From the IMG/VR virus record IMGVR_UViG_2698536307_000011: a stretch of DNA of 6,252 nucleotides, one strand, 5' to 3'. The notes below the pieces were generated by a model that was not told the DNA's origin, ran no database searches, and saw nothing but the letters and a program-made list of their open reading frames with translations. The number at the start of each line of letters is the position of its first letter. The stretch's first letter is position 1. Positions 4,362 through 4,958 of the stretch are shown here, piece after piece. The DNA is from a virus. Its lineage: Duplodnaviria; Heunggongvirae; Uroviricota; Caudoviricetes. Position numbers and translations under genes: made by a program.

Positions 4362-4794
4362 ATGTTTGGTATTTTTGGTAAAAAAAGCCCGCAGAGCGGC
4401 AACGGAAATTAAAAAGTTTGAAAAACGCGATCTGGCACAGGTGGTGATTAACGCCGCATACCTGGTGGCCTGTGCAGATGGTGAATGTGAGGCTTCCTAG
4501 AAAGCGAAGATCGAACAGGTACTGCGTAATCAGCCTGCGCTGTACGCGTTTACGTCAGAAATTAATGCGATTAGCGCAACCATTATCGGTCAGCTGGATA
4601 CGAACTTTAAAACTGGTCGTCGTGCGGCGTTACGTGAGATCGAGGATGTGAAACACGATACGCGTGAAGCGGAAGATGTGCTGGATGTGGCGGTGGCCAT
4701 TGCGGAGGCAGACGGCGAAATTGAGCCGGAAGAGCGCAAGGTGCTGGAAGAGATTGCCGGTGTTCTGGGTCTTCGTCTGGAGAATTACCTGTGA
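4362..4794 (+). pseudogene. TerB-family (tellurite-resistance TerB-like) gene disrupted by a frameshift in an A7 tract (4380-4386) and an in-frame amber codon (TAG 4498-4500)
   Basis: ATG 4362 with SD AAGGA (4348-4352) opens MFGIFGKK, which hits a stop at 4410 in frame 0. The +1 frame continues ARRAATEIKKFEKRDLAQVVINAAYLVACADGECEAS-TAG-KAKIEQVL...DVLDVAVAIAEADGEIEPEERKVLEEIAGVLGLRLENYL to TGA 4792-4794. Both ADGE..E repeats align with E. coli TerB (ASDGVSSEEKQK and AKSDGNFDDDEKSAVREIA) as recalled. Confidence 0.65.
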
Positions 4795-4958
4795 CGGTAA
4801 AACTGCGCCTGACTGTGGCTGCACTCCTGCTGTTTCTGGTGGTGATGGTGGATTTCACCAGCAGAATCATGTCGGTGCTGGCGGATGGGGTGCTGGTCTG
4901 CGGCATTATGGTATTGCTGTGGCCGGTGATAAAAAGAAACAGCCTGCATAATGCTTGA
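4791..4958 (+). CDS. Small two-helix membrane protein (about 55 aa; GTG 4791 overlapping the TerB-like stop as GTGA, or ATG 4845)
   Basis: ORF MTVKLRLTVAALLLFLVVMVDFTSRIMSVLADGVLVCGIMVLLWPVIKRNSLHNA has two hydrophobic segments and CTG-rich codon usage. It is missing from the track because it is under 60 aa. Not recognised as a named family. Confidence 0.45.
   Translation: MTVKLRLTVAALLLFLVVMVDFTSRIMSVLADGVLVCGIMVLLWPVIKRNSLHNA

Follow-up and report, generated by a model that had tools for sequence, protein, structure and literature searches.

Whether a very small membrane-protein gene stays in use after the gene in front of it has been disrupted is the question raised by a 6,252-nucleotide stretch of tailed-phage DNA (IMG/VR record IMGVR_UViG_2698536307_000011), referred to here as the window. 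An earlier sequence-only reading had pointed to an unannotated open reading frame (ORF) at positions 4791-4958, with two hydrophobic helices and a start codon overlapping the stop codon of a broken TerB-like gene, and had asked whether it is still expressed. By sequence comparison, this ORF is tciB, a real and conserved phage gene that is already catalogued and not new. Its product is probably a membrane partner of TciA, the TerB-domain protein encoded directly upstream, within a two-gene accessory cassette that would be translationally coupled and of which the window probably carries an orphaned remnant.

Identity, conservation and pairing of tciB

The tciB coding sequence (4791-4958, on the plus strand like all features described below unless stated otherwise) begins with GTG, ends with TGA, and encodes 55 amino acids, MTVKLRLTVAALLLFLVVMVDFTSRIMSVLADGVLVCGIMVLLWPVIKRNSLHNA. 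This length falls below the 60-residue cut-off of the ORF track that accompanied the sequence-only reading, and the ORF had been missed only through that cut-off. RefSeq holds the identical protein as WP_000216649.1, a 'DUF3927 family protein' with a coding sequence of 168 nucleotides, so that the description as unannotated does not stand. The exact 55-residue protein is found on at least 995 contigs.

The proposed search of small-protein families returned, besides the RefSeq entry, the Pfam family PF13064 (DUF3927) and PHROG 1470. The Pfam profile, which has 53 positions and a cut-off of 25 bits, matches TciB with 60.4 bits (E=1.7e-16; residues 3-51 on profile positions 2-50), and PHROG 1470, named 'TciB-like inhibition of cell division or resistance to colicin', matches with E=1.8e-29 over 1-54 of its 54 positions. 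The typical traits of DUF3927 are present, including a length of 55 residues (about 50 expected), hydrophobicity, and the D21-F22-T23-S24 core. TciB of phage P1 is identical to the window protein at 26 of 51 positions (51%) in an ungapped alignment that is colinear from Met1 (pairwise E=1e-17). TciB matched no Pfam family besides DUF3927, and no match was found in NCBIfam, the PADLOC models or the PDB sequences. The family is small, with 110 clusters at 50% identity (E<=1e-3) in a profile search of 1.84 billion representatives. Four of the longer hits in this search (P0156, P0210, P0197 and P0178) were considered as fusions of TerB and TciB genes and rejected, as they look like chimeric or frameshifted calls. 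As RefSeq, Pfam and PHROGs already list the gene and the P1 record names its homologue, the discovery value is small.

TciB is strongly hydrophobic, with a grand average of hydropathy (GRAVY) of +1.34. The two hydrophobic stretches of the sequence-only reading are borne out by Kyte-Doolittle analysis. The first covers residues ~5-20 (4803-4850), is only ~14-16 residues in length, and is helical in the AlphaFold2 model; the second covers residues ~26-47 (4866-4931) and contains the invariant S28 and D32. They are parted by the polar stretch DFTSR, in which alignments define the conserved motif DF(T/S)S (4851-4862) with invariant D21 and F22. Basic residues are present at both ends of the protein.

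Related loci were collected with intact TciA as bait in species-representative genomes and IMG/VR, and a TciB query and a degenerate tciB DNA motif served as alternatives. As bait in genome contigs, TciB gave 600 pattern matches, none of which was confirmed, the query probably being too short and of too low complexity. In the TciA-bait set, a DUF3927 ORF is present in 100 of 109 loci, and it lies directly 3' of the TerB gene wherever one is present. The pair occurs in prophages of Pantoea, Pseudescherichia, Franconibacter, Serratia, Pectobacterium, Symbiopectobacterium and Oceanisphaera, in the N4-like virulent phages Pollock and FSL SP-076, and in phages JLK-2012, Fostie and P1, while the tciB copy of Dryocola is degenerate. 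The absence of conservation from related prophages, which the sequence-only reading had named, along with a lack of ribosome occupancy, as the outcome that would speak against the ORF, is thus the opposite of what was found, as the ORF is conserved from Escherichia coli to Oceanisphaera, P1 and the N4-like phages. An alignment of 35 distinct alleles shows D21, F22, S28 and D32 to be invariant within the core (V/I)DF(T/S)S..(M/L)S(V/I)..D. Pairwise comparison of 30 alleles with the window tciB gives a ratio of nonsynonymous to synonymous substitution rates (dN/dS) of ~0.2-0.5 where dS is measurable, and similarity of the protein survives saturated synonymous sites in the N4-like phages, P1, Pectobacterium and Oceanisphaera. 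The Pfam match, the wide conservation and the dN/dS below 1 together mark a genuine gene for a small hydrophobic protein. Relative to the commonest tciB allele, the window allele carries two nonsynonymous changes (A8T and V40M) and no synonymous change.

The junction with tciA has the form that the sequence-only reading described. In the sequence GTGA at 4791-4794, the tciB GTG (4791-4793) and the tciA TGA (4792-4794) have two bases in common. A GGAG Shine-Dalgarno sequence (4779-4782) lies 8 nucleotides 5' of the GTG, within the last tciA codons (CTG GAG AAT), and is kept across E. coli alleles. The GTGA form is that of E. coli prophage alleles, 83 of ~100 related loci, and other junctions are TGATG in P1, TAATG or ATGA in other Enterobacterales, and abutting TAA-ATG in N4-like phages. 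The close stop/start arrangement is therefore a conserved family trait in kind, though its sequence varies, and it fits translational coupling, as far as this can be inferred from sequence.

Small ORFs also follow more distant TerB homologues that lack DUF3927. In Paracoccus (L023, 2435-2593) a 52-residue hydrophobic ORF and in Pseudomonas (L020, 2441-2644) a 67-residue one start at a position that overlaps or abuts the TerB stop, and these ORFs may be analogous partners. In the N4-like phages (L004 and L006, both 2095-2427), a conserved 110-residue ORF that matches nothing in Pfam shares 8 nucleotides with the end of tciB and may represent a third cassette gene in these phages.

The disrupted tciA and the fate of the window copy

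In intact relatives, tciA encodes a protein of 143 residues with a Pfam TerB match on its C-terminal part, and its TerB identity is also seen in a match to the PDB entry 2JXU, TerB, at E=3e-7. The window copy (4362-4794) is a pseudogene, as it is in RefSeq. Its start codon is the ATG at 4362, which corrects the start at 4363 in the sequence-only reading. That reading was right that the gene is broken, but it is broken by two lesions and not by one. The first is an A7 homopolymer at 4380-4386 (GGT AAA AAA), where intact alleles have A6, which causes a +1 frameshift at codons 7-8. The second, identified by comparison with intact alleles, is a TAG nonsense codon at 4498-4500, in place of the GAG of Glu46 at codon 46.

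Of 5426 complete E. coli genomes, 521 contain the exact 61-mer that surrounds the TAG, and the TAG46 allele is therefore real and widespread. The 1.1-kb region around tciB matches 2,674 of the 5,426 genomes. The copies of the TAG allele are at least 99% identical over 1.1 kb, so that their intact tciB says little about selection. The A7 run is a typical slippage site, and since alleles with A7 alone, with TAG46 alone and with both all occur, the lesions have either been reassorted or arisen repeatedly. This natural series of alleles (intact, A7 frameshift, TAG46, and both) is ready material for tests of coupling and of partner dependence.

The relation between the two genes was followed in 104 evaluable IMG/VR loci obtained with a degenerate tciB core motif. 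In 58 of the 104, tciA is broken, by A7 alone, TAG46 alone, A7 with TAG46, TAG46 with a 5' replacement, or a 1-nucleotide deletion. Truncation or frameshift affects tciB in 14 of the 58 and in 3 of the 46 loci with an intact tciA (Fisher p=0.017 per locus). This suggests that tciB decays once tciA has been lost, as expected if both proteins cooperate.

For the window copy, in which tciA is dead, ribosomes would no longer arrive at the tciA/tciB junction because of the frameshift and TAG46, and coupling would thereby be lost. Translation of tciB would then depend only on de novo initiation at a weak GTG behind the GGAG. The window copy is most likely a remnant that has lost its partner and is under relaxed selection. 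No ribosome profiling or proteomic record of the gene was found, and the supplements of two RNA sequencing and ribosome profiling papers on strain EDL933 hold no entry for TerB, DUF3927 or the peptide.

TciB as a proposed membrane partner of TciA and the competing explanations

TciB is favoured as the membrane partner of TciA because TciA is a relative of TerB and TerB proteins have been linked to membranes. TerB reportedly interacts with TerC, an integral membrane protein (PMC11003894). TerB proteins are also described as membrane-associated or amphitropic, alongside membrane proteins, in the Bunzi, Shango and Dionysus defence systems. In the proposed mechanism, TciB would insert in the inner membrane with both ends in the cytoplasm, an orientation that is expected because K4/R6 and K48/R49 flank the hydrophobic segments. 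There it would act as an anchor or effector partner of the cytoplasmic TerB-domain protein TciA, mirroring other TerB-domain proteins, which act at membranes together with integral membrane partners, and translational coupling would supply both at once. A lambdoid phage would produce the pair chiefly after induction, from the late transcript that is antiterminated by Q.

The role of the cassette would be accessory, linked to membrane stress or superinfection, and not to lysis. The P1 genes tciA, tciB and tciC are non-essential by CRISPR interference (PMC10695390), the single experimental result that was found for them. In P1, tciABC lie 3' of the C1-controlled ban promoters, and in N4-like phages tciAB are found among replication-type genes. 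A role in lysis is thus unlikely, because TciB has no holin match, the locus has a separate holin, the P1 genes are non-essential, and the copies in P1 and the N4-like phages are not in a lysis position.

Several points weigh against this proposal. No experiment was found on the TciA-TciB interaction, the membrane location or any phenotype, and the name Tci (tellurite/colicin/inhibition of cell division) was assigned by homology in the P1 annotation. The AlphaFold2 model of TciB is a single continuous helix of residues 3-54 (predicted local distance difference test score, pLDDT, 89) without a hairpin turn. A local hairpin that partly pairs the Shine-Dalgarno sequence and the GTG folds no better than shuffled sequences (z=-1.0) and is not counted in favour of obligatory coupling. 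The association of tciB decay with loss of tciA is no longer significant per unique haplotype (p=0.21), and the loci are also not phylogenetically independent. Among the 58 loci with a broken tciA, tciB is still full-length in 44, and all 19 loci that have the window haplotype are among these. Finally, in phage 434 and related phages tciA is absent and tciB lies behind the gene of an unrelated 247-residue membrane protein, and TciB may therefore not need TciA.

In the loci of the phage 434 type (L003, 1612-2844; L230), tciB has a TTG start and a diverged N terminus, the 247-residue protein encoded 5' of it is multi-pass, and an annotated 62-residue membrane ORF follows, overlapping a region that resembles the STnc100 small RNA. 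Pfam gave no match for the 62-residue and 247-residue neighbours in phage 434, for the 110-residue third gene of N4-like phages or for P1 TciC.

A bolder version of the partnership, which is put forward only tentatively, is that tciA-tciB forms a self-contained phage membrane module, in which a TerB sensor and a mini membrane effector or anchor with the invariant acidic residues D21 and D32 manipulate or monitor the host envelope, and which occupies the same late slot as stx2 in lambdoid prophages. If this were true, the jobs of such a module could include superinfection exclusion, counter-defence against TerB-type 'membrane surveillance', and ion or metal handling during infection. The pair is in any case a widespread phage cassette. 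It joins a TerB domain, now found in several anti-phage systems, to a tiny conserved membrane protein, and it is carried by temperate lambdoid, P1-like and virulent N4-like phages.

The rival that survives best dispenses with TciA. TciB alone would be a small membrane-active protein, such as a pore, a depolarising toxin or a modulator of lysis timing, and would still be functional in the window from its own GGAG-GTG on a Q-dependent transcript. The protein is small and very hydrophobic with two hydrophobic segments, and its gene has its own Shine-Dalgarno sequence and lies in the late region 5' of the lysis genes. The phage 434 arrangement and the intact tciB of most loci with a broken tciA point the same way, and Dionysus combines a TerB protein with a pore-forming membrane protein. 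However, TciB matches no holin or toxin family in Pfam, PHROGs, NCBIfam or PADLOC, the locus already has its holin, and the P1 and N4-like copies are away from lysis genes and, in P1, non-essential. Moreover, defects in tciB are enriched where tciA is broken. On balance, this explanation is considered unlikely.

A far less probable rival concerns the start codon. The in-frame ATG at 4845-4847, which the sequence-only reading had noted and which is indeed codon 19 of tciB, could start a 37-residue product with a single hydrophobic segment, expressed independently of tciA. ATG is a stronger start codon than GTG, and a 37-residue 'DUF3927 family protein' beginning at the codon-19 ATG is annotated on 889 contigs. 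On the other hand, other members have A, V or L in place of M19, and the ATG is therefore not the family start. Alignments with the Pfam and PHROG profiles and with P1 TciB begin at residues 1-3, residues 4-18 are conserved, and K4 and R6 are invariant in the E. coli set. The start is placed at GTG 4791 because the N-terminal part is conserved and the profiles match at full length. In addition, the sole sequence resembling a Shine-Dalgarno element before the ATG, GGTGGTG, abuts it without spacing. In all four of the 37-residue calls that were inspected, the sequence before the ATG is deleted or N-masked or tciA is frameshifted, and these public calls are artefacts of upstream damage. The 55-residue form that starts with GTG is the family-consistent product for annotation.

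The notion of a chance open frame, whose conservation would be due to the 5' flank or promoter of STnc100 or to overlapping frames, can be put aside as highly improbable: the STnc100 region does begin just past the tciB stop and other ORFs overlap on both strands, but the protein is conserved despite saturated synonymous sites and spans 110 clusters at 50% identity, and N4-like phages and P1 have a different gene 3' of tciB, which makes its conservation independent of the window's 3' sequence.

The late-region setting and comparison with known systems

The window matches the late region of a lambdoid E. coli prophage, and a RefSeq locus is 100% identical to it over 4200-5300. The gene order of this RefSeq locus is hokD, rem, a hypothetical protein, a DUF968 protein, RusA, Q and three tRNAs, followed by a 'tellurite resistance TerB family protein' (a pseudogene with an internal stop), DUF3927, a SASA esterase of the nanS-p type, holin, lysozyme and spanin. 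The holin is of class II, and holin and lysozyme lie ~3 kb 3' of tciB.

The late antiterminator gene Q (3052-3741; RefSeq) encodes a protein that shares 73% identity with the Q of phage 434, which is Q82-like. A sigma-70-like promoter found by consensus scan (3725-3753) overlaps the end of Q and is a candidate PR', and the stem-loop ACCCGC/GCGGGT followed by T7 at 3796-3822 is a candidate tR'; the stem-loop is placed on the plus strand from the sequence, while the scan reported the hairpin on the minus strand. A further promoter-like site from the consensus scan (3905-3933) lies 10 nucleotides 5' of the first of three tRNA genes (3943-4192; ARAGORN and Rfam). These tRNAs have the anticodon CAT (annotated as Ile in RefSeq), TCG (Arg) and TCT (Arg), and their genes are directly 5' of tciA. 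On the other side, an STnc100-family small RNA (Rfam RF02076; 4963-5135) begins 5 nucleotides past the tciB stop and scores 100.8 bits against a gathering threshold of 47. The RNA probably extends to the intrinsic-terminator-like hairpin with T8 at 5160-5187, which seemingly replaces the missing terminator hairpin of the Rfam model and closes the tRNA-tciAB-STnc100 block. Phage 434 has annotated terminators at places equivalent to both 3796-3822 and 5160-5187. A 31-residue ORF (4951-5046) and ORFs at 5059-5244 lie inside the STnc100 region. The next late gene is that of the nanS-p-type esterase (DUF1737 + SASA; RefSeq, Pfam), the 5' part of which occupies 5273-6252.

In lambdoid prophages generally, the cassette is placed 3' of Q with its candidate PR' and tR', and has phage tRNA genes on one side and STnc100, nanS-p and the lysis genes on the other. 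Judged from this arrangement, the tciAB module would fill a Q-dependent late 'moron' slot. RNA polymerase modified by lambda-type Q proteins reads through terminators. Polarity from the 290 untranslated nucleotides after the TAG would therefore be expected to spare transcription of tciB after induction, because the Q-modified polymerase passes terminators.

In EDL933, copies of STnc100 are transcribed without induction, and a Northern blot confirmed one of them (PMC5331693). In Stx2 phages, STnc100/EcOnc27 is located just 3' of stx2B (PMC12370729, PMC12711010), and tciAB thus occupies the slot that stx2AB has in those phages.

The tRNA genes, too, have counterparts elsewhere. The tciAB pair repeatedly adjoins phage tRNA genes, the sets of which differ, and many other relatives have no tRNA gene nearby. 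The window has Ile2/Arg/Arg, P1 has Asn, Thr and Ile2 (L109, 9349-9502 and 10934-11009), JLK-2012 has Asn, Thr and Gly (L002, 2754-2987), and a contig from a metagenome-assembled genome has Met, Ser and Gln (L019, 590-1042).

A type I toxin pattern (Hok/TisB-like) does not apply to tciB, as there is no match to an Rfam antisense family and no conserved antisense promoter. The only antisense promoter-like site within tciB (4932-4905) was examined and rejected, since its -10 element is made by the window-specific V40M codon (ATTATG, compared with the common ATTGTG). A type I toxin-antitoxin locus of the hok/sok type is located elsewhere in the window (482-806), with a mok-like 70-residue ORF at 594-806, hokD at 651-806 and an Rfam sok match at 482-656.

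The start of the window has features of its own. The first ~120 bases are multi-copy sequence. With bases 1-620 as the query, a genome gives up to 43 matches, both chromosomal and plasmid-borne; few of these cover the full length, and in one genome the match, at 100% identity, does not begin before base 121. The pattern points to the boundary of a mobile element or repeat close to base 120. A 78-residue ORF at 199-435 on the plus strand has a cysteine-rich C-terminal half (…CGAGSQMCAGYCCCNGNLLSCCCSYGSPF) and may be a chance frame.

Compared with the catalogued families, TciB matches Pfam PF13064 and PHROG 1470 over the full length, with the usual size and the DF(T/S)S motif, and no difference was seen; neither family has an assigned function. 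The closest named system is TciB of P1 (P1_gp075), in the tciA-tciB-tciC cluster. As in the window, the stop codon of a TerB-type tciA overlaps the start of P1 tciB, tRNA genes adjoin the cluster, and the genes are accessory and non-essential. In contrast to the window, P1 has a third gene of 35 residues, tciC; the 31-residue ORF at 4951-5046 shows no resemblance to TciC of P1, and its stretch matches STnc100 instead. P1 tciB also starts with the ATG of TGATG and not with the GTG of GTGA, the P1 cluster lies 3' of the C1-controlled ban promoters and not in a Q-dependent late region, and P1 tciA is intact, whereas the window tciA is not.

The TerB-TerC pair of terZABCDE resembles tciAB in that a TerB-domain protein is encoded beside an integral membrane protein, which it reportedly binds. 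However, TciB has no match to TerC, and the other ter genes are absent at tciAB. Bunzi, Shango and Dionysus likewise combine TerB-domain and membrane proteins, and 'membrane surveillance' has been hypothesised for those systems. In contrast to these systems of host defence islands, tciAB is carried by phages, including virulent ones, and a search with PADLOC models gave no match for TciB and only a faint one for TciA (PDC-S48, E=0.003).

Class II holins and pinholins are, like TciB, small phage proteins with two hydrophobic segments that are encoded in the late region, but TciB matches no such family in Pfam or PHROG, and tciB is not next to the endolysin gene. Lastly, the position of the module 3' of Q and 5' of STnc100/EcOnc27 and nanS-p is that of stx2AB in Stx2 phages, with the difference that the cargo in the window is tciAB and not a toxin.

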